IMG/VR virus record: IMGVR_UViG_3300045988_132111
DNA length: 63,965 nucleotides
DNA from: a virus
Direction: 5' to 3' (one strand)
Both the position numbers and the translations under genes were made by a program. This document shows, piece by piece, positions 21,384 through 61,075 of this stretch. The notes beneath the pieces were generated by a model, which saw nothing but the letters and a program-made list of their open reading frames with translations, was not told the DNA's origin and ran no database searches. Within the stretch, counting starts at the first letter, position 1, and each line of letters opens with the position of its first letter.

Positions 21384-21854
21384 TTACTTCTTCTTATTGT
21401 TGGTATAGATTTTTACATCATCATCCAACTTGAATGTGTTGTTTATCGTCTTTGTCATGAAAGATTTTGACAACTGTTTACCAACATCAATTGCTGCCGG
21501 AGTAATCATATCTTTCATCACTGTCTGCGCAATCTTCTTACCCTTAGAAACTTGCTTTGGAGTTAATGAGCTCAATTCTTGTTCTAGTTTTATCCTGCTA
21601 ATCTTCTGTCGGATTTCATCATCGGACATATCTTTCACGGATTTTGATTTCGACTTCGTCTTTGAAGATTCGGAACCCTTGGCGCTCTCTGGATGACGTC
21701 TAAGATTCTTTCCGGTAAGATTTGTATACTCAGCTCTCATCTTTGAAGCTTTTTTTCTGCCAGCGGAAGTAAGCGTTCCATCTTTGTTCTGGTACCGTCT
21801 CACACCCCATTTCATACCAAGTATTCCGTGATGGGATAAGTATTCATTTTCCAT
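21384..21854 (-). CDS. basic hypothetical protein with an N-terminal EYLSHHGILGMKWGVRRY box
   Basis: 156 aa and Lys/Ser-rich. Its N-terminal box resembles residues 21-28 of the 970-aa ORF. Confidence 0.55.
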   Translation of the reverse strand: MENEYLSHHGILGMKWGVRRYQNKDGTLTSAGRKKASKMRAEYTNLTGKNLRRHPESAKGSESSKTKSKSKSVKDMSDDEIRQKISRIKLEQELSSLTPKQVSKGKKIAQTVMKDMITPAAIDVGKQLSKSFMTKTINNTFKLDDDVKIYTNNKKK

Positions 21855-22994: not shown

Positions 22995-23124
22995 ACTGTG
23001 TTTAGGTGAACTTATAGAGCCATCGGAAAATGTGGATTTATCTTTTCACTGAAAGGAGAATTTTACCTATGAAAAAAATACGTAAATAGCGCGAAATAGT
23101 TCTATAAGTTCGCCTAAACACAGT
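22995..23124. promoter_or_regulatory. 24-bp inverted repeat (one mismatch) enclosing an 82-nt spacer, upstream of the late operon
   Basis: 22995-23018 actgtgtttaggtgaacttataga pairs with 23101-23124 tctataagttcgcctaaacacagt. The spacer contains promoter-like box P1. Confidence 0.8.
23068..23095 (-). promoter_or_regulatory. promoter-like box P1 (divergent member)
   Basis: Coding strand: TTCGCG-CTATTTACGTATTTTT-TTCATA, 113 nt upstream of the TerS start. The right-hand hexamer is weak. Confidence 0.35.
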
Positions 23125-23176
23125 AAATTAAGAAAATATCAGCCGGGGTTTCACCCAAATGTTTTCTGGAAAATAT

Positions 23177-23242
23177 CCCCCGGAGAATTTTCAAAGACCG
23201 GGGCGATGCAGGGAGGGGGTGTGATTTTTGAGACCCCCCCTC
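23177..23242 (-). terminator. two GC-rich hairpins after the RNAP-like operon
   Basis: 23213-23242: gaggggg..(loop)..ccccctc. 23177-23203: cccccgg..(loop)..ccgggg. Both sit in an otherwise AT-rich genome, and no clean U-tract follows the first. Confidence 0.45.
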
Positions 23243-23259
23243 TATATCTTTCGCTCCGA

Positions 23260-23532
23260 TTAAGCCACCTCTGTGGTATTTGGATCTGTATTCTTTTGAT
23301 TTCTGTACACTTTTTTGTAAATATTAAGAAAATCGTTATCAATGATTTCATCAATAACTCTTTCGTGTTCTTCATCGAACTCTTTTTCTGACATATCATC
23401 AGAATAATGGGTAAGTCTATCTATCTTTCCGCATGTATTGTAACCATTTCGGTTATCAAACAGCATCCAAAGAGCAAACTGCTCAAATGGATCATACGGA
23501 TTGTCAAATGTCGTTAATCTACAATCACTCAT
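23260..23532 (-). CDS. hypothetical protein
   Basis: 90 aa. Its ATG overlaps the stop of the upstream ORF (TAATG). Confidence 0.55.
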   Translation of the reverse strand: MSDCRLTTFDNPYDPFEQFALWMLFDNRNGYNTCGKIDRLTHYSDDMSEKEFDEEHERVIDEIIDNDFLNIYKKVYRNQKNTDPNTTEVA

Positions 23533-26444
23533 TAAGCTGTTGCTCCTTTCAAATATTTAGAAACTGTTGATGTAGAAACACCAAGTTTGTCTGCAATCTG
23601 TTGAATTGTATAAGAAGAAGACATCGCTTTGATACGATTTGCTGTAGCTGCGCTGATAGAAGCAGATGATTTAGGCATTGCTCTCTGGCGAAGTGAATCA
23701 GGATCACAGTTTTGAAGGATTGATTTCAATTTGTTCTCACTGATTGCACCTGCCTGAATGGCTTCCCATTCTTTGTCAGTTATCTGGATATTTCTCTCTT
23801 TTCTGGAGATAGAACCCACTTCTTCTCTAGCTTTACTCAACGCTCTCTGCGAATCCTTCTTAATTTCTTTAGTCTTCAATTTAACACCAGCTTCCTCAGC
23901 TTCTTTCTTTTTGGCATTGATAGTGGCTGCAGCCATACGATTGGCAGTCCTCTCACGTACCGTATTAAGTTGTGCTTTATGAAGCTTTTGCTCAAGACTA
24001 TTGACCTCTGTCTGATACTTAGCCTTAGCTTCCTTGCTATAAGCTATCTTACCGGTCTTACTAATTTCAACACGTGCCTGATTGGCAAGCGATTTCATGG
24101 TATTGGCATAGTCAGCGTAGACCAGTTCCATGGGGTGTCTATACTCAGATACTAGGGTCATGGCGTCATCGGTTTCTGCCATATTAGTGCTCTTCTGAGT
24201 ACGAACTTTCTGTACTTCAACGATTTCGCCAGTTCGTTTATCCACTTTAGTAGTGGTGTAGTCCGCGTCATCTGCTCTTCTGTACAGTAATGCACCTTCT
24301 GGTCTTGACGGATCATAATCTGGCTTGCCTTTCAGATTAACATGGGGCTGTCCCTGTCTCTTATCAACATCCACTTCTCCTTTAGCTCTGGAAATAAGAG
24401 TAGATGCTCCGCCAAATCTCAGATGGCCGGTCGAATCATAGTGTGCCTGGTATTCTTTTTTCAAAGCTGGAATATTGTTATCTATCTCACTCTGTTTATA
24501 GTCCAGATGATGTTTCTCCGCGTCGATAACAACCATTGAATGGCGAACCGCTCTTGCCATCTTATTATCATCTGCTCCAGCAAGGGTCATGTCTGTGATA
24601 AGATTACTGATTTTACCCATTTCAGTATCGGTCTTTTTCAAAAGCTGATACTCATGCCCACCACGATAGTAATGTTCTTTTCCTTCGTTATCGACTCTTT
24701 TCTCTCCACCGTACTCCATTTTGGGGTCGAATCCAACAAGCCCTTCCAAAGCAGGACGAGAAGCAATCTTCACCTTACCAGCTTTATCATGGGTAGGAAT
24801 GCACATTGCTGTATCACCATCGAAGTCTGCCCCAGATAATCGTTCGGCAACTTTGCTATTAATACCAACAGCATCAATTGAAGTTTTACCGATCATTTCG
24901 ATGGCTTCTCTATTCTTATTGTTTACGGTAAGAATAGGTATCTCAAAAGTCCCTCCGTGCGGAAAACGAATAAGCGCAAGTTTACTTCCATCCGGATACC
25001 CAGGAGCGTATACTTCTTTATCTGACATAGTAGTAAGCGGAAGTATGACATGATATTTCTGTCCAGGAAGAGCAGCCGCTTTCAAATGCACAGCCGCAGA
25101 GTCACATGACTGAGCAAACTTCTCCAAATAATACTTCTTTATAGTCGGGTTCGTGAGAGCATTAATCTCAGCAAACTCCTCTTTCTTATCTGCTTTAGCA
25201 ATACCAAGCTGCTTCTCGGCCATAGCCTTGGACTGTTTGGACAAGAACTGGGATGGTAAAGAATCTTTCCATTCGGTCCAATCACCCTCAGCTCGTGTCT
25301 TGTTAATTAAACCAAGTTTCTTTTCGCCTTTTTTATCGGTATACCAATACTGTCCACCCTGATCTTTCTCTTTGATGGCTGCGCCAAATGGGTTATCTGG
25401 ATCGTTCTTAATGTCTTTCAGAACATCAAGTTTAGAAACGCTCTTAGATTTGTTGGTGTTAAATATAACATCCACACCTGCCGGAAAGTCTTTTGGATCA
25501 CCGTAAACAGCCATTCCTTTGATGTACTTCTTTCCATCAACCATGATTCTAACCTGGGAATATCTGGATTCACCAAGAGACAAATCAGCAACACCAGGAC
25601 GGAGTTGAACTAAACCATCCCTTTCCAATCCGCCTTCTTCTGCATAGCGGATTTTCAGTCGTTTAGAATCCATACTTTCTGGGTAATGAAATTTCTTTTC
25701 GTATGTGTTTCCGCCGTCTCTTGAAATATAATCTTTAATGGTATGAATCTTGTCCAAATCATAAATGGCATTATGAGGAGTGTCTGGTTTACAGAGCACT
25801 CGTTGTGTTGTCATCTGGCCCTTGTTGGTCACCTGCGCAAAGCGACCACCGTAGACTTTGTATCCACCCTCAGCCTGTAAGATGAAGAGAGCCTGATCTA
25901 ACTTCTCTTTTGAAATGTTTAATTCGCGATCGACGCCAGTCCCGACATCAATCATACCTTTCTCATCAACATGTTTCTTTAACATCTCGGCAGTAGCTCT
26001 TGCCTGTTTCATTCTGGATTCCGAATTTGGGTTCAGGTATGATCTGACCGTAGATTCATTGACACCTAATTGTCTTCCGATTTCAGTTGCACTCACTCTT
26101 TTTTTCTTCAGAGCTTGTGCTCTTGCCACGTCATATCCACGACGCTCATCCTTGGCGATAGCGTACACAGTTCGGAAATCAGTAGAAGAATATCCAAGAG
26201 ACTTTGCAATAGCATTATCGCCAGTATATTTCTTTCCAGTCTGCGGGTCAGTATAGGTGAATCCGTTCTTTCTCATCTGTTCGACACGACCTAAGAAATC
26301 CCTACTGGACTGAAATGGCTCTTTACCAGATCCCCAAGGATATCTACCGGATCTTCTAGGCATACCGTAATGCTCCAAATATTCCTCATCGCTCATATAT
26401 CCGCAACCAAAATACGAATCTATCTCTTCAAGTATGGAACTCAT
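23532..26444 (-). CDS. candidate single-subunit two-barrel RNA polymerase (YonO/RdRP-like) with N- and C-terminal HTH modules
   Basis: Residues 540-544 are DFDGD (nt 24813-24827, GAC TTC GAT GGT GAT) in the context SGADFDGDTAMCIP. RFPHGG lies 47 residues upstream. HTH-like segments are VSATEIGRQLGVNESTVRSYL and YTIQQIADKLGVSTSTVSKYL. AGGAGGTG RBS. Confidence 0.5.
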   Translation of the reverse strand: MSSILEEIDSYFGCGYMSDEEYLEHYGMPRRSGRYPWGSGKEPFQSSRDFLGRVEQMRKNGFTYTDPQTGKKYTGDNAIAKSLGYSSTDFRTVYAIAKDERRGYDVARAQALKKKRVSATEIGRQLGVNESTVRSYLNPNSESRMKQARATAEMLKKHVDEKGMIDVGTGVDRELNISKEKLDQALFILQAEGGYKVYGGRFAQVTNKGQMTTQRVLCKPDTPHNAIYDLDKIHTIKDYISRDGGNTYEKKFHYPESMDSKRLKIRYAEEGGLERDGLVQLRPGVADLSLGESRYSQVRIMVDGKKYIKGMAVYGDPKDFPAGVDVIFNTNKSKSVSKLDVLKDIKNDPDNPFGAAIKEKDQGGQYWYTDKKGEKKLGLINKTRAEGDWTEWKDSLPSQFLSKQSKAMAEKQLGIAKADKKEEFAEINALTNPTIKKYYLEKFAQSCDSAAVHLKAAALPGQKYHVILPLTTMSDKEVYAPGYPDGSKLALIRFPHGGTFEIPILTVNNKNREAIEMIGKTSIDAVGINSKVAERLSGADFDGDTAMCIPTHDKAGKVKIASRPALEGLVGFDPKMEYGGEKRVDNEGKEHYYRGGHEYQLLKKTDTEMGKISNLITDMTLAGADDNKMARAVRHSMVVIDAEKHHLDYKQSEIDNNIPALKKEYQAHYDSTGHLRFGGASTLISRAKGEVDVDKRQGQPHVNLKGKPDYDPSRPEGALLYRRADDADYTTTKVDKRTGEIVEVQKVRTQKSTNMAETDDAMTLVSEYRHPMELVYADYANTMKSLANQARVEISKTGKIAYSKEAKAKYQTEVNSLEQKLHKAQLNTVRERTANRMAAATINAKKKEAEEAGVKLKTKEIKKDSQRALSKAREEVGSISRKERNIQITDKEWEAIQAGAISENKLKSILQNCDPDSLRQRAMPKSSASISAATANRIKAMSSSYTIQQIADKLGVSTSTVSKYLKGATA

Positions 26445-26445
26445 A

Positions 26446-27012
26446 TCACACCTCCTGCAATCTACTCTTTTCTATAAGTTCATCGAAATGAATAATAGTG
26501 TCCATAATGTAGGAAATCTTTTCTGGATCAGGATGATGTACCAGAACTTCATCCTGTTTATACAAACGGAGTTCGATATCAATCGCACTGGGCTTATATT
26601 TATACTCCAAACAGAACAGAGCTGCATATACTTCCAATTGTTCAATATGATCTTCGATTTTTCCGGATTTGCCTGTCTTTAAATCATGTATTCGCAATAT
26701 GTTATTTCTGAAGCAGATAGAATCAGCTGTTCCGAAGAAATTATTTGAATAATATAGGACAACCTCAGTATCCATCTTGAATCCGATTGCATCATTCACA
26801 TATGCGTATATTGTCTTCTTTGATCGAGGTTGCTTAATTCCTAAATCAATCGTGTCTTTAGCCCAAGCGTGAAGCTTAGTGCCGATTTCTTTAGCTTTCA
26901 GATTTTCGAATACAGTGAGTAACTTGTCGTCCGAATATCTCAGCCATGCACTTGAACTTGCAGAAAACGGTGCATGAAGTCCGCTAAGATTCGAATGCTT
27001 GATGAAGTTCAT
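26446..27012 (-). CDS. PD-(D/E)XK nuclease (DUF2800/Cas4-like)
   Basis: HAPFSASSSAWLRYS at the N-terminus, then GTADSI..LRIHDLKTGK (D..D-x-K). Confidence 0.55.
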   Translation of the reverse strand: MNFIKHSNLSGLHAPFSASSSAWLRYSDDKLLTVFENLKAKEIGTKLHAWAKDTIDLGIKQPRSKKTIYAYVNDAIGFKMDTEVVLYYSNNFFGTADSICFRNNILRIHDLKTGKSGKIEDHIEQLEVYAALFCLEYKYKPSAIDIELRLYKQDEVLVHHPDPEKISYIMDTIIHFDELIEKSRLQEV

Positions 27013-27274
27013 CTAATACTTCCTCCTTGTTCTCTGGATATATAAATTTTGAAAATGACATATTATCCATTTTTTCAACGTAATAATCCTGATTCGGTCG
27101 ATGTGAAGCTGTAGCGCTCTTTTTGACTTCAAGAGCAGCCCACTTGTCTTTATACAAAACCAATAAATCAGGAATTCCTTGAATATCAGCAGAATCCAGT
27201 TTTGTTACAATACAACCCGGAAATCTGCTTTTTAATTCTTTCTTCAAGTCAGCCTGAAATTTATTTTCTTTCAT
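26984..27274 (-). CDS. VRR-NUC domain nuclease
   Basis: IPDLLVLYKDKWAALEVKK is a PD-ExK core. The start is set at the ATG at 27274, because the track start at 27328 lies inside the tRNA gene. Confidence 0.65.
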   Translation of the reverse strand: MKENKFQADLKKELKSRFPGCIVTKLDSADIQGIPDLLVLYKDKWAALEVKKSATASHRPNQDYYVEKMDNMSFSKFIYPENKEEVLDELHQAFES

Positions 27275-27298
27275 GGCAAATCCCTTTCTTTTATAGAG

Positions 27299-27372
27299 TG
27301 GACCTTGATGGGTACGATCCATCGACATCCCGGTTATGAGCCGGACGCTCTAACCAACTGAGCTAAAGGTCC
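27299..27372 (-). tRNA. tRNA with anticodon CAT (Met elongator type or Ile2)
   Basis: Hand-folded sequence: GGACCTT-TA-GCTC-AGTTGGTTA-GAGC-G-TCCGG-CTCATAA-CCGGG-ATGTC-GATGG-ATCGTAC-CCATC-AAGGTCC-A. All four stems pair. The T-loop ATCGTAC is non-canonical. Confidence 0.8.
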
Positions 27373-27463: not shown

Positions 27464-27491
27464 CTATAAAAGTGTATGTAATTTTCGCACG
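27464..27491 (-). promoter_or_regulatory. promoter-like box P2
   Basis: Coding strand: CGTGCG-AAAATTACATACACTT-TTATAG, about 90 nt upstream of the tRNA 5' end. Confidence 0.45.
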
Positions 27492-27517
27492 TAATCTTTT
27501 GGGGCACGTTCGTAACA

Positions 27518-28251: not shown

Positions 28252-28291
28252 TTTTTAATCCTCCTGAAATATAAATGTAAACCTTATGGTT

Positions 28292-28319
28292 CCATAATAG
28301 AGCTTGTAAATATCACGAA
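28292..28319 (-). promoter_or_regulatory. promoter-like box P3
   Basis: Coding strand: TTCGTG-ATATTTACAAGCTCTA-TTATGG. Confidence 0.5.
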
Positions 28320-28330
28320 CCACTTACGCA

Positions 28331-38248: not shown

Positions 38249-38273
38249 GCATCTGTTCCTCCTCACATTTTTC

Positions 38274-38301
38274 TCATAAGAGGAACTGTTTTCTACGCGA
38301 T
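38274..38301 (-). promoter_or_regulatory. promoter-like box P4
   Basis: Coding strand: ATCGCG-TAGAAAACAGTTCCTC-TTATGA followed by GAAAAATG. Confidence 0.5.
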
Positions 38302-38474
38302 TACTCTTCATCATAATCTTCTACCTTAAAACCAAAGCACCATTTTATCATTAGTTTCTGGAACCAGTTGAAATGGTGATCAACTATAAAATGTATTGAA
38401 CTTAAACCAGCCCCGATACTAATTTTTGCGCCATTTTTGATCTGAGGTGTTTGTGTCTCTACGTCAATTTCCAT
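38301..38474 (-). CDS. small hypothetical protein (57 aa, not in the track)
   Basis: Own translation: MEIDVETQTPQIKNGAKISIGAGLSSIHFIVDHHFNWFQKLMIKWCFGFKVEDYDEE. Confidence 0.35.
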   Translation of the reverse strand: MEIDVETQTPQIKNGAKISIGAGLSSIHFIVDHHFNWFQKLMIKWCFGFKVEDYDEE

Positions 38475-41174: not shown

Positions 41175-41197
41175 TATCGCCCTTTCATTAGAAATTA

Positions 41198-41226
41198 AAA
41201 GAGCCTCAGCTATTTCTAGCCAAAGC
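41198..41226 (-). terminator. 29-bp repeat copy 1 (GAAA-tetraloop hairpin)
   Basis: aaagagcctcagctatttctagccaaagc. The coding strand folds as GCTTTGGCTA-GAAA-TAGCTGAGGC followed by TCTTT. Confidence 0.6.
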
Positions 41227-41765: not shown

Positions 41766-41935
41766 TGTTTCTATCTCCTTCTGATATAATATTTTCTTAT
41801 ATATTTCTTTTGATAATGAATACCGTCATCTGTATCCAAGTAATCGCCAACGATGCGATAATCAATAAGTCTTCTAAAACCTAACTTGTATAGTAATCCA
41901 AGCAACTATTCCTTCCTCCTGAATAAATATAAAAG

Positions 41936-41964
41936 AAAGAGCCTCAGCTATTTCTAGCCAAAGC
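41936..41964 (-). terminator. 29-bp repeat copy 2
   Basis: Identical 29-mer to copy 1. Confidence 0.6.
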
Positions 41965-42167: not shown

Positions 42168-42194
42168 ATAAATTTCCTCCTTGAAATATTTTTC

Positions 42195-42222
42195 TCATAA
42201 CAGAGACTGTATTTTGCGCGAA
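42195..42222 (-). promoter_or_regulatory. promoter-like box P5
   Basis: Coding strand: TTCGCG-CAAAATACAGTCTCTG-TTATGA followed by GAAAAATATTTCAAGGAGG. Confidence 0.55.
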
Positions 42223-42239
42223 TATTGGATAAACGAAAG

Positions 42240-42268
42240 AAAGAGCCTCAGCTATTTCTAGCCAAAGC
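42240..42268 (-). terminator. 29-bp repeat copy 3
   Basis: Identical 29-mer. A 12-bp stem is possible here (GAGCTTTGGCTA/TAGCTGAGGCTC). Confidence 0.65.
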
Positions 42269-42560: not shown

Positions 42561-42578
42561 AAAAATATCACTCCTTTC

Positions 42579-42606
42579 TCGTAATAGAGACTGTATTTTA
42601 CGCGAA
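42579..42606 (-). promoter_or_regulatory. promoter-like box P6
   Basis: Coding strand: TTCGCG-TAAAATACAGTCTCTA-TTACGA. It overlaps the polymerase stop codon. Confidence 0.5.
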
Positions 42607-45600
42607 CGGAATTTCTTCTGGCGCATCTTCTGGAATGTTCATAAAATCCTCAAGTCTCGGTGGTGAGGTATAGGGGTCATCAGATACGAACCATTCAAAG
42701 TCACCGTACTTGGATATGGCTTCTACCGCATCATCCACAAGTTTATCATAGAATGAACGGTCAATAAACTCGTCATTTCCGCCGTTAAACATGACATCGG
42801 ACTCCAACCAACGGTACCCAGTGGTTCCAGTTGCTGCGTAGTATTTACCTTCTTGTTCTCTTACAAGAACTCCGCCACCTTTACCAGTTTTAACCGGACA
42901 GAACTCCCCAACCTTTCCCACAAAGTGATAATCATGACCTTCTGCTATTTTTTCAGCAAGCTCTGTAGCTTCGGGTTCGAATAGTGTATCAGACAATTTG
43001 CCTTTTTTGTAATCGTTCTCGATCTTCTCCAAACGCTTCTCATATCCAGATACATCTGGAAGTTTCTCATTCATATCCAAATATAAAGCTGATTTTACAG
43101 AGAATGTTTCGCACATATCCCGAATGTCGACAGGTTCTTTGCTAAATAATGTCTTAAATACATATGGTACCGCAAACTGCTTACCTGTAGCTGTCCATGG
43201 GTCTTTAATGTGATCCGCATTGTCTCCTGGAATATATCCATATAACTGCTCGCATTCTTCTGGCTTTTTGTATTTGGCAATATAAACCGCGTTATTCACA
43301 AGGCACATACGGTCATAGGTCGCCTCGTGTTCGAATGTATATCCATATCTCTTACCAAAGTCCATAACAAATTTGATAATCTCTGGTGTGGCATCTGGAA
43401 TCTTGATTGAGTCTGTCTTAATATGTGCAACAGTAAAACCTCGTTTCTGAACCTCATTCTTCAGATCTACCATGAACAGTGCGCCTCGTTTAGCCACAAT
43501 GTTGTCCTTATTACGAATATCACGGAACGCATTGTCGAATTTGGCTGAAGTTAGGCCGTATACAGAGTTAATTGCTGTCTTTAGTGCATTAGCCAAATCC
43601 TTAGCTGTCATTTCACCATCAATTACCTTCTGGATATAAGGCGTCAACTTCCCGTCAAGCATATGATTGACCTCGTCCCAGGCTTTATGTTTTATACTCA
43701 CACGACCCTCAACGATGTCACGGAACGCCTTGGTATATCTCACTCCAAATAAGACTTCAGCAATCGTACTGTGAGGATGCATGGAAGCAATGTCCAGCAA
43801 CGCGACATTTCCATACGTACCAGGCTCTGCATATACATACCCACCTTCTCCGACTTCTTCTCCTCGATAGATTGAGACTCCGTTTTCGTATCTATATCCC
43901 GGAAAATACGGAAGTAATGACCCCGCCTCCCCATGGGTTTGACTCATCATTTCAGGACACGCTTCAGCAAGGAATTGATATGTATCCTCATCCAAGTCGA
44001 GCACTGGTTCTGCAAGATTCCGATAATGGAACTCATTCTGAGGGTTCTTATTATTTCCAAATATAAATTTTGTTGTGAGCGTATTTGTGGTGTCATTCAC
44101 ACTCATCCCTGCGAGATCTGCCAGAATCTGTCTTGCTGTCCAATCTGATTTCAAATAATAAAAGCCCGCCTCAGTAGCAATAACATCGTCATCGCAATAC
44201 TCAGCAACCTCTTGCCATCTTGATTCTGGAACTGGCTGATCCCACGGAAGTCCAAGCTCATGATGTTTAATGCCTTTCAGCATCTCTCTTAGATCATCGT
44301 CCATCTTAGATTTTGGATCGTTTGCAACATTACTCATCTCAATCTCAAGTTTTTTCAGACTCTTTTTATTACCAGCTGAGGCGAAGTCGTAGACATCCGT
44401 ATAAGAAAGATTGTATGCCTCGCCGAATGTGTACTTTTTTTTTTCGCCTTTTTTTGTGTTGATGATATGCTGGGAAAGTTCATATATCTGCTGATTGTCA
44501 TAACCGAGCATGCAAGCATAAAGCATGTGATTATCGTACTGTCTGCAGTTAAATCCAATCAGCCTGTATTTTATAAGCTCTGCGATATCTGTTGGTCTTG
44601 GATTGATAAGTCTGACAATAGGTTTATCTTTTCCTTGAAATTTCCAATTTACAAGAAATAGATTAGGAAATACCTCACAATCAAAAAATATAATAGGCTT
44701 TTCTACATCGCCTGTGGTATTGGGAGCAGCTTCTTCAGACTTGAATTTCATTTTAGACACAAGCTTGATACAAAGGTCAGACTGATTTGAACTTTGGGCT
44801 GCGAAAGCGTACACAGCGTTCTTCATATCGGATACATCATAGCTCATGCCGCTGTTGTAAGCATCTTCAAGTACTTTATAAATGAAGTCCACGTTCGGTT
44901 TAGTCCCCTGGGGATGAACTTCTTTTGCTAAGCACTTCTTTATAGTTGTTCTCAGTCCCTTTTCAGACTGAATAATATCTGTACTTATCATTTTTTCCTC
45001 CTTCATTGGTAAACCTGAACTGATTGTTGCTATCAACAAAGAATTACATAAAGTAAGTTTTCTTCTGAGTGAGCTGTTGCCAGTAAACACTTTGATCTCA
45101 ATGTCTTTGTCGTATATTCTGGAAAGCTTAGATACGTCCCCTTTGTAAATATAATGAAGATGTAATCCAGCACCACCCTTACTTACCTCAGCATACGTAG
45201 CAGGCCATTTGCTGGCGGCTTCCAAATTCTTCTCAAGAGATTTGTTTCCATCCTCGTCTTTGAGATCGAAGTCGATTACGATCAACCATTCTGGAACTTT
45301 GACATAATGAAGCTTAGAAACATCCAGATCTTTGAGTTTGGTCTTGACTTTCGTCCATCCCTTTCTTGGGGTTTCGTCCGAGTTAGCGTACTGAGCGGGA
45401 GCGTCGCTACAGAGATCCTCGAAAGGTCCAATTTTTCCAACTTCAGATTTCTCAAGTTTGATCCATGAAGCTCTTCTGCTTTTATCATCATCTCTTACCT
45501 CTTTTACTTTTTTCTCAAAAATATCACTGCGAAAACCGCTATACACGTTCCTTGAACCGGCGCCATCATTAAAGGTCTCTGTGAACTCCCGAAAATAGTT

Positions 45601-46809
45601 CTTCAACTCCTCTTTAAATGTTCTTTGAGAAAATGGATACGGAACTCTTGCATCCTCGCAATAAACCTTATACATCTCCCACGCAGCTTTAAGAGTTGTT
45701 CTATCGTCCTTTTTGAACACGCGAAAAGAATCCACCACAAAGTTATAGAAGTCGTTAGATGCCCCCAACATTGCTATTGGTGTATAGTTGTCAAATGCGC
45801 CTGGATTCTCCAAATATACTTCCTTGCAATGGTATGCTATTCCTCCAAGTTCGAATGTCACCTGATCCATCGCTTCCTTATATTCTCTCGGATTGAGCTT
45901 GTTGCCAGATGGCGATACGTCAATAAGTCTTCGGATCAGACCAGACTTTCCATCTGTAATCTTTACCGGCTTATTAGTTCCCATAAATAGAAAAGCATTA
46001 AACCGGTTAGAATATGCAGATTTGAATTTCTCATTAACTGTCATGAGCTCGTGAGAAACAAGACTGTTTAATCGGGTGTTGTCTTCAATTCTTGATAGGT
46101 CGCCGTCATGCTGAATAGCGACCAGTGGATTGGTTTTGAATGCCTCTAACGCAAAAGAGTTATTACTCGATCCCAACGCCTTAGCATCAAATACCGAATA
46201 ATAACCCTCAAACAAAGCTTGTATGATATTTAAGATTGTAGATTTACCTGTTCCTGCGGCACCGTAAAGTACCATAAATTTCTGAATATATTTTGAATCA
46301 CCTGCAACTATAGATCCGATGGCCCACTCAATTTTTCTTCTCTCTTCTTCAGAGTATAAAGTAGAGATTAATTTGTTGTAAGCAGATATATTTCCCTGTT
46401 CCAGTGGATATGGAAGCTTTTTACTGGCATAATCAGTTTTTTTAGTCTCCATATTGGAAAATATCAATTCCTCATCAAGTGGATGATAATTGTCTCTAAG
46501 CTGTTTTTGACAGTATTTATGCCAATCGTCGATCATTCCAGAAGTAGCATCCCACATATACAAAGTATGTACCGATTCGTTTCCGGAATTTTCTTTGTAT
46601 TTTATTGTGAAATTTTTAAGCTCTCTGTCAATCATATCAATGACGTCCTGCTCATCGGTTGACCATAGACCATTTTCTTCGACCCAGACGGCATAGAAAT
46701 CTCCACCTCGAATCATGAGATCAGATGATTTTTTCATTACAAAGTTTGGATAGATTTCAACAACACCCTGCTTTTTAGAACGCGTGGAAATCCTTACAAA
46801 ATCAAGCAT
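42598..46809 (-). CDS. SF3 helicase (D5/P4-type NTPase) + AEP primase-polymerase + family-B DNA polymerase fusion
   Basis: Walker A LYGAAGTGKST (res 181-191). AEP motifs VIDFDLKD and GGAGLHLHY (res 511-554). Exo I FFDCEVF (710-712), Exo II FNCRQYDNHM, Exo III YCDDDV. Pol A LLDIASMHPHS (1006), Pol B KTAINSVYG (1077), Pol C HIKTDS (1131). Confidence 0.8.
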   Translation of the reverse strand: MLDFVRISTRSKKQGVVEIYPNFVMKKSSDLMIRGGDFYAVWVEENGLWSTDEQDVIDMIDRELKNFTIKYKENSGNESVHTLYMWDATSGMIDDWHKYCQKQLRDNYHPLDEELIFSNMETKKTDYASKKLPYPLEQGNISAYNKLISTLYSEEERRKIEWAIGSIVAGDSKYIQKFMVLYGAAGTGKSTILNIIQALFEGYYSVFDAKALGSSNNSFALEAFKTNPLVAIQHDGDLSRIEDNTRLNSLVSHELMTVNEKFKSAYSNRFNAFLFMGTNKPVKITDGKSGLIRRLIDVSPSGNKLNPREYKEAMDQVTFELGGIAYHCKEVYLENPGAFDNYTPIAMLGASNDFYNFVVDSFRVFKKDDRTTLKAAWEMYKVYCEDARVPYPFSQRTFKEELKNYFREFTETFNDGAGSRNVYSGFRSDIFEKKVKEVRDDDKSRRASWIKLEKSEVGKIGPFEDLCSDAPAQYANSDETPRKGWTKVKTKLKDLDVSKLHYVKVPEWLIVIDFDLKDEDGNKSLEKNLEAASKWPATYAEVSKGGAGLHLHYIYKGDVSKLSRIYDKDIEIKVFTGNSSLRRKLTLCNSLLIATISSGLPMKEEKMISTDIIQSEKGLRTTIKKCLAKEVHPQGTKPNVDFIYKVLEDAYNSGMSYDVSDMKNAVYAFAAQSSNQSDLCIKLVSKMKFKSEEAAPNTTGDVEKPIIFFDCEVFPNLFLVNWKFQGKDKPIVRLINPRPTDIAELIKYRLIGFNCRQYDNHMLYACMLGYDNQQIYELSQHIINTKKGEKKKYTFGEAYNLSYTDVYDFASAGNKKSLKKLEIEMSNVANDPKSKMDDDLREMLKGIKHHELGLPWDQPVPESRWQEVAEYCDDDVIATEAGFYYLKSDWTARQILADLAGMSVNDTTNTLTTKFIFGNNKNPQNEFHYRNLAEPVLDLDEDTYQFLAEACPEMMSQTHGEAGSLLPYFPGYRYENGVSIYRGEEVGEGGYVYAEPGTYGNVALLDIASMHPHSTIAEVLFGVRYTKAFRDIVEGRVSIKHKAWDEVNHMLDGKLTPYIQKVIDGEMTAKDLANALKTAINSVYGLTSAKFDNAFRDIRNKDNIVAKRGALFMVDLKNEVQKRGFTVAHIKTDSIKIPDATPEIIKFVMDFGKRYGYTFEHEATYDRMCLVNNAVYIAKYKKPEECEQLYGYIPGDNADHIKDPWTATGKQFAVPYVFKTLFSKEPVDIRDMCETFSVKSALYLDMNEKLPDVSGYEKRLEKIENDYKKGKLSDTLFEPEATELAEKIAEGHDYHFVGKVGEFCPVKTGKGGGVLVREQEGKYYAATGTTGYRWLESDVMFNGGNDEFIDRSFYDKLVDDAVEAISKYGDFEWFVSDDPYTSPPRLEDFMNIPEDAPEEIPFA

Positions 46810-50364: not shown

Positions 50365-50398
50365 TTTAATTTTCCTCCTAAAAATAAGTTTTCATTTC

Positions 50399-50426
50399 CC
50401 ATTAAAGTGGTTGCTTTTTTCGCGAG
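50399..50426 (-). promoter_or_regulatory. promoter-like box P7
   Basis: Coding strand: CTCGCG-AAAAAAGCAACCACTT-TAATGG. Confidence 0.45.
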
Positions 50427-51242
50427 TTACATTAATTTTGAGAAATCGTATTTTGGCGCGACATGATATTCCAAGGTGATGCACGGTCGGTTATCTTTTG
50501 CTATCATAGTGCCATAACTAATCTCGACCAAACCATCATCCAAATTCCACCCAAGCTCATCACTTATATCAGTATGTTCGAGATCCAGTTCGTCATAAAA
50601 TTCGCTTAATGAGACATACATGTCGTAATTTAAAGAACGGTTTATCTTATTCACAGCAGTCTCAATTTCCTGTATACTAGATTCAAAATATCGTCCAGAT
50701 ACACCATCATAGCAAAGCTGTTTACCGTTTCCAGTGATGATAACCTGACTGTCATTTACAGGATTATTATCGAGCTGTTTTTGTGCCACCCTATCTTTGA
50801 TTGCCTTGGCTTTTTCTTTTCCTACTTCTTCAATGGTAGCTTCCTTATATTCTGTGAGTGCTTTTTCAGATAACTTATAGGCTGTTGCTATAGCTGCATT
50901 ACGTTTTGAATGTACAGTATTAGCTCCAACGATGCATGCGATAGATGTCGCACCAGATATAGCCGCCGGAATATAACATTTCCAGGTTGCTTTGACTACT
51001 TCAGGTTTGGTTAGTTTAAACATGGTATCTAACTCAGAATATCTATGGTCGCGATCGAATTCCTCTTTCTTATTCTTTTCAACTTCTTTGATTTTTTCCA
51101 TGGCCTTAGGTGTAGCTTTTACTGCCAGTACAGTAGTTGTAATCATTCCGGCAATACCAAAAGCAATAAGAATCTCTGGACTTTTTTTTTCGACTGCTTT
51201 TTTTACTGTGTTGAATATTTTCATTACGTTTGGTTTCTTCAT
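50427..51242 (-). CDS. TM-anchored protein, paralog family member 2
   Basis: N-terminus EKKSPEILIAFGIAGMITTTVLAVKATPKA. C-terminus VSLSEFYDELDLEHTDISDELGW. Confidence 0.65.
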   Translation of the reverse strand: MKKPNVMKIFNTVKKAVEKKSPEILIAFGIAGMITTTVLAVKATPKAMEKIKEVEKNKKEEFDRDHRYSELDTMFKLTKPEVVKATWKCYIPAAISGATSIACIVGANTVHSKRNAAIATAYKLSEKALTEYKEATIEEVGKEKAKAIKDRVAQKQLDNNPVNDSQVIITGNGKQLCYDGVSGRYFESSIQEIETAVNKINRSLNYDMYVSLSEFYDELDLEHTDISDELGWNLDDGLVEISYGTMIAKDNRPCITLEYHVAPKYDFSKLM

Positions 51243-51437: not shown

Positions 51438-51456
51438 TTATGTATACCTCCTTTCA

Positions 51457-52287
51457 TTAAAGCATCTGTAATTTTGGCGAATTTGGATTGTTGGCATAAT
51501 ACTCCTCTTCGCTTTCATAATAGTCATCATAGTTTACCCGCGGCTCAAATGGCATCTCGATGATATAAAACTCAGTACCGTCTTTGAGTTTTGCCCTACG
51601 ATGATTAAATTCAATCCAATATTCTCCTTCATCAGTTGGCGCCCAGCCAAGAACCTCTCCAAAGTCGGTAGAGGATAAACCAAGAAAAGAATATAATTCA
51701 TTTAGAATAACACTTCCGCCCAATGCGTAGTTTCGGTTTAAATGGTATTCGGCATTTTGTACTTGTTCCACCGTAGCTCTAAAGAATCGCTTCGAATATT
51801 CTTCGTAGAATAATACCGGTCTTCCAACCGATTTATCTGAAGATATGTCACAATCACTGCATAAATAAGACGCTTGAATGTGCACTTTTTCAGCCTTTTC
51901 TACAGCAATAGCCTCAATTATCCTCTGATCCGCTTCCTCTCCATATAATTCTTTCAACTTTCTACGATAATCTTTGTAAGACTGATCTAGCAAGGCGTAT
52001 GCACTCGCCATAGATGCTTGCTGGTGCTGGTTAAGAATTTGTGCTCCGCAGATGCAGAATATAGTCGCCGAACCGGTCAATATCACAGGCAAATATGTAA
52101 GAGCCACTGTCTCGGTTTTCTCTAGTACAGTAAGCTCCTCACCTTTCTCCAACTCAGCGTTAGCTAGCAGCCGCTTTGCTTTTGGTGCTGCTTTGGCAGA
52201 TAACACTGCAGTTGCCACAACATCAGCGCATCCAAGTACAGTCAGTATGGTGGATGAGTTTCTCTTGAAAAATAACTTTGGCTTCAT
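51457..52287 (-). CDS. TM-anchored protein, paralog family member 3
   Basis: N-terminus RNSSTILTVLGCADVVATAVLSAKAAPKA. C-terminus VILNELYSFLGLSSTDFGEVLGW. Confidence 0.65.
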   Translation of the reverse strand: MKPKLFFKRNSSTILTVLGCADVVATAVLSAKAAPKAKRLLANAELEKGEELTVLEKTETVALTYLPVILTGSATIFCICGAQILNQHQQASMASAYALLDQSYKDYRRKLKELYGEEADQRIIEAIAVEKAEKVHIQASYLCSDCDISSDKSVGRPVLFYEEYSKRFFRATVEQVQNAEYHLNRNYALGGSVILNELYSFLGLSSTDFGEVLGWAPTDEGEYWIEFNHRRAKLKDGTEFYIIEMPFEPRVNYDDYYESEEEYYANNPNSPKLQML

Positions 52288-53106: not shown

Positions 53107-53146
53107 AGTTTTTCTCCTTTTCATATGAAGTGGTTAAAAGCTAAAA

Positions 53147-53215
53147 GAAACAGTGTGGGGCTCGAACCCACGACCCTTCGCTTGTGGAATGCTCTCCCAA
53201 CTGAGCTAACTGTTT
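53147..53215 (-). tRNA. tRNA-like gene (69 nt) with a truncated anticodon arm
   Basis: Sequence: AAACAGT-TA-GCTC-AGTTGGGA-GAGC-A-TTC-CACAAGC-GAA-GGGTC-GTGGG-TTCGAGC-CCCAC-ACTGTTT-C. The acceptor, D and T arms are canonical. Only 19 nt lie between the D and T arms, where 22-23 are expected. No U33. Confidence 0.45.
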
Positions 53216-53217
53216 CT

Positions 53218-53245
53218 CCATTAAAGGAATTGAAAATATCGCGAA
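53218..53245 (-). promoter_or_regulatory. promoter-like box P8 (drives the tRNA-like gene)
   Basis: Coding strand: TTCGCG-ATATTTTCAATTCCTT-TAATGG. It ends 2 nt before the tRNA-like 5' end. Confidence 0.5.
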
Positions 53246-53256
53246 AATAAAAGAAA

Positions 53257-53360: not shown

Positions 53361-53386
53361 TCTTTGATACCTCCTTTGATTTTTTC

Positions 53387-53414
53387 TCACTAAAGAAAGT
53401 GTAAATATCGCGAA
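53387..53414 (-). promoter_or_regulatory. promoter-like box P9
   Basis: Coding strand: TTCGCG-ATATTTACACTTTCTT-TAGTGA. Confidence 0.5.
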
Positions 53415-53420
53415 AGAGAA

Positions 53421-53777: not shown

Positions 53778-53805
53778 GACTTTGTTCCTCCTTAGAATTA
53801 TTTAG

Positions 53806-53833
53806 TCATAATAGAAAGTGTTATCTCCGCGAA
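53806..53833 (-). promoter_or_regulatory. promoter-like box P10
   Basis: Coding strand: TTCGCG-GAGATAACACTTTCTA-TTATGA. Confidence 0.55.
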
Positions 53834-53865
53834 AGAGCAAGAGCCGTTGCCAGCTCCGCTCGTAG

Positions 53866-54027: not shown

Positions 54028-54054
54028 CTCTGATTCCTCCCTTGAAATATTTTG

Positions 54055-54082
54055 TCATAATAGAAATTGTAAAATTGGCGAA
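54055..54082 (-). promoter_or_regulatory. promoter-like box P11
   Basis: Coding strand: TTCGCC-AATTTTACAATTTCTA-TTATGA. Confidence 0.55.
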
Positions 54083-54085
54083 AAG

Positions 54086-54110
54086 AAAGAGCCCTTGTTA
54101 AGAGCCCTCT
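54086..54110 (-). terminator. hairpin terminator
   Basis: Coding strand: AGAGGGCTCTT-AAC-AAGGGCTCTTT, an 11-bp stem with G-U pairs, followed by a T-rich tract. Confidence 0.55.
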
Positions 54111-54379: not shown

Positions 54380-54405
54380 AGATACCCTCCTAAAATATTT
54401 TTTTT

Positions 54406-54433
54406 TCATAACACCCCATGTAATTTTCGCTAA
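54406..54433 (-). promoter_or_regulatory. promoter-like box P12
   Basis: Coding strand: TTAGCG-AAAATTACATGGGGTG-TTATGA. Confidence 0.5.
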
Positions 54434-54789
54434 AATCCAGTCTTATCGAAATATGTTTCCCAGCGTTCCCGGACCATGGGTTTCATCCTTAGATTCCACA
54501 TTAATTGTCGGACCGTCATTGTTGGATATAATCCATTCGTAGGTGTACTGGCGTATTTATCAAAGACTGATTTAAATTTGGAATGTAAATATAGAGCATC
54601 CGTCAAACACCGGTCGATCTCAGACCACCAGGTGCATTTTGATTTTTTGTCGTATCTTTGTTGGATAACCGCCAGCCCTTTGTCTCCAATCAAATATAAA
54701 GTACAGTGGTTGTACGCTGGATGATTACATTCGTAGAGCTGCCCATACATTGATGAATATTCTGCTGGCTTTGTGTAATGGTATTTCAT
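54430..54789 (-). CDS. hypothetical protein
   Basis: 119-aa ORF. Confidence 0.55.
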   Translation of the reverse strand: MKYHYTKPAEYSSMYGQLYECNHPAYNHCTLYLIGDKGLAVIQQRYDKKSKCTWWSEIDRCLTDALYLHSKFKSVFDKYASTPTNGLYPTMTVRQLMWNLRMKPMVRERWETYFDKTGF

Positions 54790-55092: not shown

Positions 55093-55107
55093 AAAAGATT
55101 CCTCCTT

Positions 55108-55135
55108 TCATTATAGGAGCTGTAAAAATAGCGAA
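55108..55135 (-). promoter_or_regulatory. promoter-like box P13
   Basis: Coding strand: TTCGCT-ATTTTTACAGCTCCTA-TAATGA. Confidence 0.5.
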
Positions 55136-55140
55136 AAAAT

Positions 55141-56550: not shown

Positions 56551-56577
56551 TTTGAAATCCTCCTTTATGTAATATTC

Positions 56578-56605
56578 TCATAAGACGCCATGTTATTTTT
56601 GCGAA
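56578..56605 (-). promoter_or_regulatory. promoter-like box P14
   Basis: Coding strand: TTCGCA-AAAATAACATGGCGTC-TTATGA. Confidence 0.5.
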
Positions 56606-56814
56606 GACTGTTCTTCTTTATATATGATAATTCTTTTCTTTTTAGAAAGGTCGCCTTGAGTTGGTATACGAACATTTATGTTGTAAAATCCAGTATCTTC
56701 ATCATCATCATATGGTACTACTGTGAAATATCCGTATCCCGATTTGTGATAAAAAAATAAAAGCGTTAATACCACTCCCAAAGCAACTCCAATAAGTAAA
56801 ATAAGATAGTTCAT
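56593..56814 (-). CDS. small membrane protein
   Basis: The ATG at 56814 follows GGAGGAAAAGAAA. MNYLILLIGVALGVVLTLLFF. Confidence 0.55.
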   Translation of the reverse strand: MNYLILLIGVALGVVLTLLFFYHKSGYGYFTVVPYDDDEDTGFYNINVRIPTQGDLSKKKRIIIYKEEQSSQK

Positions 56815-58152: not shown

Positions 58153-58177
58153 ATGTATATGCCTCCTTTATCTTTTC

Positions 58178-58205
58178 TCACAATAGCAAATGCGATTTTC
58201 ACGAA
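58178..58205 (-). promoter_or_regulatory. promoter-like box P16
   Basis: Coding strand: TTCGTG-AAAATCGCATTTGCTA-TTGTGA. Confidence 0.45.
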
Positions 58206-58625
58206 TTATTCCCGCGCTTTGTTCAGCAGCCAGAAGAACCTCCGGTAGGCTGTATAGTACACGTCTTTGCAGCAAGGGATATTCATTCTAGCTTTCAAAA
58301 TATCATAGCTCCATCCTTCTGTAACGCCTTTTAATATGTACTCTGCCAGCTCCGGATCAGTTTCTTTTGCTACTTTCTCAATCATCTCCATACGGATAGA
58401 ATAATAATGCTTGAGTATAGCAATTCGCTCAGTAGGGTTTGATACATGACGCGCCTTCCCAAATGCGTTCAATGCCTCACGTCTACTTAACATCCCATTC
58501 AGAGAAGAATACGCCTTCTTCCAGATTGGGTATTGCAGACAAAAATGTTTCAATTCGTAATGTCGATGTTTCTCGATCCAGTATGGATTCTTCTCCGATA
58601 CCTCTGCTCTTATAATATTTCCCAT
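58206..58625 (-). CDS. putative transcriptional activator (sigma-70 region-4 / ArpU-RinA-like)
   Basis: 139 aa from the ATG at 58625 (AAAGGAGG RBS). The C-terminal GWSYDILKARMNIPCCKDVYYTAYRRFFWLL is HTH-like. Size and context fit phage late activators. Confidence 0.4.
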   Translation of the reverse strand: MGNIIRAEVSEKNPYWIEKHRHYELKHFCLQYPIWKKAYSSLNGMLSRREALNAFGKARHVSNPTERIAILKHYYSIRMEMIEKVAKETDPELAEYILKGVTEGWSYDILKARMNIPCCKDVYYTAYRRFFWLLNKARE

Positions 58626-61010: not shown

Positions 61011-61042
61011 AATCTAATCCTCCTTCAATAGGTATGTTTTTC

Positions 61043-61070
61043 TCATAAAGGAGCATGTGCTTTTCGCGAA
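61043..61070 (-). promoter_or_regulatory. promoter-like box P17
   Basis: Coding strand: TTCGCG-AAAAGCACATGCTCCT-TTATGA. The left element is part of the perfect 14-bp palindrome CTTTTCGCGAAAAG. Confidence 0.55.
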
Positions 61071-61075
61071 AAGAA

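Follow-up and report, generated by a model that had tools for sequence, protein, structure and literature searches.

Two-barrel RNA polymerases normally require separate initiation factors. Among phage-encoded enzymes of this kind, gp66 from phi14:2, a crAss-like phage, and gp96 and gp64 of Thermus phage P23-45 are single-subunit two-barrel proteins belonging to the same major clade as the eukaryotic enzyme QDE-1; gp66 and gp96 are virion RNA polymerases, and such phage polymerases transcribe early genes from phage-specific promoters. YonO, encoded by the Bacillus prophage SPbeta, is the only characterised minimal two-barrel example from a bacterial virus; it is a proven DNA-dependent RNA polymerase that transcribes the SPbeta late genes as one operon, and its promoter recognition is unknown (PMC5467207). 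Ruprich-Robert and Thuriaux (2010) placed a protein of phage 1706 among five 'YonO-like' families (PMC2919709), and Koert et al. (2021) named its gene as the signature of a supercluster that spans actinophages and phages of Firmicutes, reporting an HHpred match of 95.7% to Pfam RdRP, a DxDGD motif and helix-turn-helix (HTH) modules at both ends (bioRxiv 10.1101/842583). In this work we describe a member of this family encoded by the IMG/VR record IMGVR_UViG_3300045988_132111, analysed as one stretch of 63,965 nucleotides (the window) in which all genes lie on the minus strand. The gene under study is a 970-aa open reading frame (ORF) at 23532..26444 (minus strand, ATG start) whose product is a homologue of single-subunit two-barrel RNA polymerases (PHROG 4291) and bears HTH modules at its termini. 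The polymerase prediction is not new, and the protein is a fresh gut-phage member of a known family without biochemistry; the added value of our analysis lies in a promoter-like sequence, the P box, which is shared by phages of different bacterial phyla and makes the function accessible to a simple in vitro experiment. The best overall explanation, to which we assign a probability of about 0.7, is that the protein is a two-barrel transcriptase with HTH ends that is served by P-box promoters.

Catalytic core and relatives of the polymerase homologue

The PHROG 4291 profile, itself labelled 'RNA-dependent RNA polymerase', matches residues 17-967 of the protein over profile positions 6-907 of 909 (E=0, 1203 bits), and some members of the family carry the same label in NCBI. 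Full-length relatives at 37-58% identity were recovered by tblastn in 251 phage records, with hosts including Arthrobacter, Gordonia, Streptomyces, Microbacterium, Curtobacterium, Rhodococcus, Lactococcus (1706-like phages) and Faecalibacterium. These comprise the 'HTH domain proteins' of phage 1706, Faecalibacterium phage Oengus and the actinobacteriophage supercluster, which belong to the same family over their full length (37-58% identity) and share both the HTH modules at the two ends and the DxDGD motif. The closest match is 57.7% identical among phage records and 98% identical in metagenome assemblies, and in a large protein collection the homologues form more than 8000 clusters when grouped at 90% identity.

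Eight residues are invariant in all two-barrel polymerases, namely D709, R738, K743, R962, P964, D1007, D1009 and D1011 in QDE-1, with D837, K979 and K987 as acidic and basic counterparts in Rpb2 (PMC2919709). Each of the eight has an invariant counterpart in the present family, in the same order and with similar spacing: D276, R299 and K309 form the first-barrel set and match D709, R738 and K743 of QDE-1 by motif and order, while R493, P495, D540, D542 and D544 form the second-barrel set. In an alignment of 54 homologues that are 38-87% identical to the query, about 130 columns are invariant, including D276, G277, R299, K309, G310, R493, P495, H496, G498, D540, F541, D542, G543 and D544; because these residues are retained at such low identity, the motif set does not reflect chance. 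Scripted motif placement and the ORF list agree with every position given in the original prediction, from the limits of the ORF to DFDGD at residues 540-544 (nt 24813-24827) in its context AVGINSKVAERLSGADFDGDTAMCIP, RFPHGG at residues 493-498, and the strand RIMVDGKKYIKGMAVYGD at residues 299-316, which begins with RIMVDGKKYIKG at residue 299. The spacing from the R-x-P motif to DxDGD (R493 to D540) is 47 residues, compared with 45 in QDE-1 and 43 in YonO.

These motifs fall into two predicted barrels. A catalytic, beta-prime-like barrel at residues ~485-552 (24789..24992, minus strand) would carry R493-x-P495-H496 and the D540-F-D-G-D544 metal loop, and its strand pattern is seen in AlphaFold models. 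The putative partner barrel, beta-like and at residues ~260-335 (25440..25667, minus strand), holds the invariant D276-G277, R299 and K309-G310 in a region that is modelled as beta-rich with a predicted local distance difference test score (pLDDT) of 84-97. On the C-terminal side of the catalytic barrel, a conserved helical segment at residues 605-665 (24450..24632, minus strand; MGxxSNLITDMT...ARAVRHSMVVIDAEKH) is nearly invariant across clades.

Structure searches lead to the same group of enzymes. We obtained an AlphaFold2 model of the whole protein (pLDDT 76.8, predicted template modelling score 0.63) and a second model of residues 190-770 (pLDDT 82.2), and for both of them all eight Foldseek matches in the PDB with E<=0.001 are to the two-barrel polymerases QDE-1 (Neurospora and Thielavia) or plant RDR2, each with probability 1.00. 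The best matches are 7y7s_A at 2.2e-7 for the full-length model and 5fsw_B at 7.4e-7 (TMq 0.43) for the core model. Next, and not significant, are Pol II Rpb1, the polymerase of vaccinia, VAT-N (a double-psi-barrel protein) and crAss gp66 (E=0.88), which, like the P23-45 enzymes, differs greatly from the present protein in size and fusions. In the BFVD viral structure library, the top matches are to phage proteins that bear the name RNA-dependent RNA polymerase. None of the Foldseek matches of either model places the DFDGD segment in a Toprim, primase or recombinase fold, and such a fold was rejected. QDE-1 and RDR2, which are thus the best and sole significant structural matches and are alike in the eight key residues, share only ~11-13% identity with the protein, lack HTH modules and have N- and C-terminal regions unlike those found here; furthermore, they make double-stranded RNA for silencing, whereas this protein is encoded by a double-stranded DNA phage beside promoter-like boxes.

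Weighed together, the family profile, the fold and the invariant catalytic residues support the proposed single-subunit two-barrel polymerase, and we consider it very probable that the protein is an active nucleotide polymerase of this kind. Several points have to be set on the other side. The Pfam RdRP model (PF05183) stays below its gathering score of 23.8 bits for all ten proteins searched; sub-threshold matches of 12.9-20.2 bits were obtained for seven of the ten, comprising the window's own core (12.9 bits) and six of nine homologues, with 20.2 as the best value among the ten. In every matching protein, profile position 425/426 onward falls on the DFDGD segment and the helices that follow, so that residues 605-665 lie inside these matches. 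The TM-scores to QDE-1 and RDR2 are modest (0.34-0.43), the assignment of the barrels draws on motifs, modelled secondary structure and Foldseek, and no biochemical or structural study of the family was found in the searchable literature. In addition, when the PDB was searched by sequence, both the protein alone and a profile of the 54 sequences returned HTH matches only and no polymerase, and NCBIfam contains no model for the polymerase core.

GenBank and JGI names for the gene imply another protein altogether, a large HTH transcription regulator whose core would be catalytically dead. Most of the 251 records call it merely a 'helix-turn-helix DNA-binding domain protein', and HTH models are the only Pfam models to pass their thresholds. 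No other part of the protein is nevertheless as well conserved or as well modelled as the core, and its metal- and substrate-binding residues are all invariant in the 54 sequences down to 38% identity, as is characteristic of an active site under maintenance; we therefore regard a dead core as scarcely credible.

The relationship to YonO is one of catalytic design. YonO is likewise a single chain of similar size, and its TDG, R..KG, RxPH, DxDGD and SNxIT motifs are colinear with those of the present protein. A low-stringency hhalign alignment pairs RDG...QVRI..YIKG with TDG...MVRLPWVKG, RFPH with RSPH, ADFDGD with FDNDGD and SNLITDM with SNNITKI, and aligns the helical segment 605-665 with IGEYSNNITKIW of YonO. 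When the 54-sequence family was compared by hhalign with a non-redundant alignment of 34 YonO sequences built from IMG/VR loci, the result was not significant (1.6% probability, pairwise E 0.031), and the probability was 0.7% against a single sequence. Membership of the YonO family proper was consequently rejected, there being no significant profile similarity beyond the colinear catalytic motifs. The original prediction of a YonO/RdRP-type enzyme is thus supported, with the qualification that the protein has its catalytic design in common with YonO and its closest relatives by fold in QDE-1 and RDR2. It is likely that the enzyme belongs to a clade uniting the eukaryotic QDE-1/RDR enzymes with the YonO-like and crAss-like phage polymerases.

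HTH modules flank this core at both ends, as had been predicted, with the C-terminal module scoring above Pfam cut-offs and the N-terminal one identified from sub-threshold matches and a modelled helix pair. This arrangement, which the original prediction called unusual, is a described property of the whole family and is not peculiar to this gene. The N-terminal module (residues 111-136; 26037..26114, minus strand) has the recognition helix NESTVRSYL, with the clade consensus NESSVRxLL, and its matches to Pfam HTH_28 (2.8e-4) and HTH_AsnC are all below cut-off. The C-terminal module (residues 945-966; 23547..23612, minus strand; recognition helix STSTVSKYL) is sigma-70 region-4-like: it matches Pfam HTH_23 at 5e-9, past the curated cut-off, as well as Sigma70_r4_2 (28.8 bits, cut-off 25.7) and Sigma70_r4 (25.3 bits, cut-off 24.1), with a sub-threshold match to NCBIfam sigma70-ECF region 4. 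The match to sigma-70 region 4 tells the type of HTH and not a sigma function, because many generic HTH models score equally well or better. AlphaFold models place helix pairs at residues 119-126/130-136 and 947-954/958-966. No HTH module is described in the YonO literature examined, and the YonO sequence itself was not scanned. Some actinophage-type homologues (P0272, P0281 and P0341) are ~150 aa longer and end in a 2'-5' RNA ligase domain (PF13563), a fusion that may point to a link between the enzyme and the processing of RNA ends.

The P box and its putative reader

A repeat search of the window identified the P box, a sequence of ~33 nt with the consensus TCGCG-N7-ACA-N4-CT-N-TWATGAGA (TTCGCGAAAATnACAnnnnCTnTTATGAGAAAA in the window). 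Strong copies number 14 and are confined to the coding (minus) strand between 38.2 and 61.1 kb, at 61035-61074, 58170-58209, 56570-56609, 55100-55139, 54398-54437, 54047-54086, 53798-53837, 53379-53418, 53210-53249, 51446-51485, 50391-50430, 42571-42610, 42187-42226 and 38266-38305. Two variants on the same strand accompany them: a weaker copy at 28284-28323 and a form (ACGTGCGAAAATTACATACACTTTTATAGAGAGAAGA) at 27464..27492 that heads the cassette of tRNA-Met, VRR-Nuc endonuclease, Cas4-like exonuclease, polymerase and a 90-aa ORF. The boxes score 19-44 bits with a position weight matrix (PWM), compared with a maximum of ~13 bits in shuffled sequence, and the same scan gave no P box on the plus strand of the window. 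They are intergenic and often follow a hairpin, and every box ends 0-26 nt before a ribosome-binding site (RBS). One box precedes tRNA-Leu; at 51454 and 55108 the RBS AAGGAGG abuts TAATGA directly.

The same element recurs in relatives of the phage. Close relatives carry the same core, and among cultured phages the box occurs as 11-12 copies of GTTTTACATACCCTATAATGAAAGGA in Lactococcus phage P162 (with a cassette-type variant at 46511-46543), as 8 copies of TTTCGCAGAAAATACATGGCCTATAATGAGA in Arthrobacter phage GantcherGoblin and as 6 copies of CTCGCAAGAATTACAYGCCCTATAATGAGACCCC in Streptomyces phage TieDye. To survey the family more widely, we searched 80 IMG/VR loci encoding it (1.14 Mb) with a regular expression for the core only, ACA-N4-YT-N-TWATGR. 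The coding strand gave 113 matches and the opposite strand 4, while shuffled sequences gave 2-11 and YonO-type loci, used as a control (476 kb), gave 0 and 2. A CGCG-A-rich flank, which lies outside the expression, is present in nearly all of the core matches. All 113 lie upstream of the polymerase gene, none of them within it or in the downstream late genes, and 53 of the 67 loci with enough upstream DNA have a core match 0.7-1.5 kb 5' of the polymerase gene (consensus CGCGaaAAAaACATgccCTTTTATGAagaGAgaag). Two genomes gave sparser results: in MT835495 the repeat search shows no P-box family and the PWM finds two copies near the polymerase gene, and in an oral [Eubacterium] sulci phage no core match was found in the 10 kb upstream of the gene, the early region lying further away. 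We report the P box as new, the literature that could be searched containing no account of it.

These observations bear on what the polymerase does in the cell. We consider it likely that the enzyme is a DNA-templated phage transcriptase, and we lean, with less assurance, towards the P box as its promoter, read by its own HTH modules. In this scenario the polymerase would transcribe the phage's own genome, its HTH modules recognising the P box, a bipartite element with TCGCG ~20 bp upstream of ACA-N4-CT-N-TWATGAGA, without a sigma factor, and the boxes would head ~15 early or middle transcription units together with the cassette that holds the polymerase gene itself. Initiation would probably fall inside the conserved ATGAGA block or at its end: the abutment of the RBS on TAATGA at 51454 and 55108 requires a transcription start inside the conserved block, an arrangement that resembles the promoters of single-subunit phage polymerases. 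The polymerase is the sole DNA-binding protein among the genes conserved in both phyla in the list of Koert et al. (bioRxiv 10.1101/842583). Furthermore, the HTH modules and the box vary together: the NESSVRxLL N-terminal recognition helix and the TCGCG half-site are both present in the gut and actinophage clades, another N-terminal helix (SPGSVTNYA and similar) goes with the lack of TCGCG in the Lactococcus clade, and all clades share the GVSTST sequence of the C-terminal HTH and the ACA..TWATGA core.

Identity of the P box as an ordinary host sigma-A promoter is unlikely because its flanks are conserved across three bacterial classes, and because the position equivalent to -11A is unconstrained in gut-clade boxes and the start falls inside the block. 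There are nevertheless grounds for caution about recognition by the phage enzyme. The co-variation of helix and TCGCG half-site is based on three clades only, and a perfect TATAAT, which host sigma-A could use, forms the core in the phages of Arthrobacter, Streptomyces and Lactococcus. The polymerase cassette is moreover headed by a P-box variant, so that exclusive recognition by the phage enzyme needs seeding, which might come from weak host use of the TATAAT-like core, from upstream read-through or from delivery in the virion.

The host-like core leads to a different division of labour, in which host polymerase, alone or with another phage factor, would use the P boxes for early and middle genes, the polymerase gene among them, and the phage enzyme would transcribe the late structural and lysis operon beyond cos, starting at an unrecognised promoter or running through cos. 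The precedent is YonO, which serves late genes in SPbeta (PMC5467207), whereas the P boxes here are early or middle elements. The gene is the last large one before the late operon with all genes co-oriented, the core is TATAAT in three clades, and a P box as the gene's own promoter is explained most simply if the host reads P boxes. Host sigma factors leave the conservation of the TCGCG, ACA and GAGA flanks across three bacterial classes unexplained, however, and gut-clade boxes lack the -11A and have an RBS spacing unfit for sigma-70 geometry. A sigma-70 consensus and terminator scan of 21.5-39 kb likewise found promoter-like sites not to be enriched (60 found, 58 expected).

No P box or other conserved promoter-like element was found between cos and the first late gene, and a late-gene role, which the original prediction had drawn from the analogy with YonO, receives no support from a core that is confined to the upstream side of the gene. 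Two candidates in this interval were rejected as late promoters: a P-box look-alike at ~23050-23085, which is below the PWM threshold and not conserved, and TTCTCCTTTC (~23040-23075, plus strand), whose shared 9-mer is the reverse complement of the RBS of a small opposite-strand gene that is present in relatives (L088 13134-13364) and reduced to a 6-codon remnant in the window. We judge this division of labour unlikely; the phage enzyme might still transcribe late genes, for instance by running from the promoter of its cassette across cos when the DNA is circular or concatemeric, although nothing in our computations supports this.

Template choice raises a further alternative, that the protein is an RNA-dependent RNA polymerase with a regulatory or anti-defence function, or a polymerase that makes replication primers or forms R-loops and acts together with the neighbouring nucleases. 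The nearest folds are RNA-silencing RdRPs, QDE-1 accepts both RNA and DNA templates (PMC9508822), the role of the family was left open by Ruprich-Robert and Thuriaux (PMC2919709), and some homologues carry the C-terminal 2'-5' RNA ligase domain. Such roles would not account for two HTH modules of the double-stranded DNA type that are conserved family-wide, and the phage already encodes a 1403-aa primase-polymerase; moreover, the co-occurring motif is promoter-like, being on the coding strand just before RBSs, and not origin-like. We find these roles improbable, well below the late-operon alternative, and retain the P-box transcriptase as the preferred explanation.

A more far-reaching form of that explanation can be put forward tentatively. 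The enzyme may be a self-sufficient, sigma-independent transcriptase whose N- and C-terminal HTH modules read the TCGCG and ACA-N4-CT-N-TWATGAGA halves of the box, and which is possibly packaged in the virion; phages of Actinobacteria, Bacilli and Clostridia would then have retained a common promoter code, and early transcription may be started by injected enzyme. The first genes of the right arm are headed by P boxes, as is the enzyme's own cassette. By analogy, delivery in the virion may make the protein the equivalent, in a siphovirus, of the virion polymerases of N4, crAss-like phages and P23-45. A hint in this direction, which is a lead, comes from an invariant, disordered N-terminal peptide that faintly resembles a motif of DUF7211 proteins. 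This peptide, HYGxxRxSGRYPWGSG (residues 25-40; 26325..26372, minus strand), is predicted to be disordered (pLDDT <50), and columns H25-G40 are invariant or nearly so in the 54-homologue alignment. It resembles the N-terminal motif of DUF7211 only weakly (P=0.0019 by hhalign across 12 columns), Pfam gives no DUF7211 match for it, and literature searches on DUF7211 returned nothing, so that the relation is only a lead; a shared targeting or docking peptide may be indicated by the two sequences. The motif (EYLSHHGILGMKWGVRRYQ), related to the polymerase peptide, is borne by a head-module ORF at 21384-21854, and relatives have up to four DUF7211 proteins adjoining TerL.

With an HTH-bearing catalytic core and a cross-phylum P box, the family permits a direct test of how a minimal two-barrel enzyme finds its promoters. 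Its size (more than 8000 clusters), its presence in 251 cultured or deposited phage genomes and the ease with which SEA-PHAGES and dairy phages are grown make it attractive for this purpose. If the proposed relationship is true, it would provide a compact orthogonal polymerase-promoter pair for Gram-positive hosts and would put right the names of thousands of genes that are at present annotated as 'HTH DNA-binding protein'.

Gene neighbourhood and genome layout

The polymerase gene lies in a cassette whose order of VRR-Nuc, exonuclease and polymerase is the same in relatives. Immediately upstream is a Cas4/RecB-like exonuclease (26446-27012, minus strand), preceded by a VRR-Nuc endonuclease (about 26984-27290, minus strand), both calls being based on matches to PHROG 3953 and 93. 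The true start of the VRR-Nuc gene is probably further in, because its ORF call (26984-27328) overlaps tRNA-Met (CAT; 27298-27372, minus strand), which was identified by ARAGORN directly downstream of the P-box variant. A second tRNA, tRNA-Leu (CAA; 53146-53216, minus strand), was found by the same program directly downstream of a P box. On the other side, the ATG of a 90-aa ORF (phrog_4303; 23260..23532, minus strand) overlaps the polymerase stop codon (TAATG). This small ORF adjoins the polymerase gene in all relatives examined, namely P162, GantcherGoblin, TieDye and metagenomic relatives, and corresponds to a conserved hypothetical protein in the list of Koert et al. (bioRxiv 10.1101/842583); it is a possible candidate for a cofactor or accessory subunit.

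Beyond the 90-aa ORF there follow a 300-nt spacer with G/C hairpins, a phrog_4259 ORF and an HNH endonuclease, and then a virion structural protein, the DUF7211 protein, TerL, the portal and a protease-capsid gene. This gene order agrees with the earlier placement of the polymerase, no other large gene standing between it and the genes for packaging and structure. Synteny of the polymerase gene at the right genome end is conserved in relatives, and in phage 1706, Oengus and the actinophages the order is, as here, VRR-Nuc, Cas4/RecB exonuclease, polymerase, small ORF and genome end. Within the spacer, a G/C double-hairpin block at 23176..23243 (minus strand) is more strongly conserved in relatives than the flanking sequence. 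Many related contigs end within 100-450 nt past the polymerase gene, linear phage records end close to the block, and the block is probably a cos or genome-end region, a terminator, or both.

Further repeats were observed elsewhere in the window. Three identical or nearly identical copies of a 33-nt sequence (AAAGAAAGAGCCTCAGCTATTTCTAGCCAAAGC) lie at 41194-41226, 41932-41964 and 42236-42268, near the start of the primase-polymerase gene. Between 28574 and 28915 the sequence TTTTTGGATATCCAATAAT, whose core GGATATCC is palindromic, occurs five to six times at close intervals, an array that resembles iterons or operator sites and is possibly an origin or a regulator-binding array. Finally, collagen-like (GXY) tail-fibre repeats are found at both ends of the window, at 1-74 and 63614-63962, with bases 1-74 being 91% identical to 63878-63951; given these repeats at its two ends, the window is probably a complete, circularly permuted genome of ~64 kb that was broken within the repeat.

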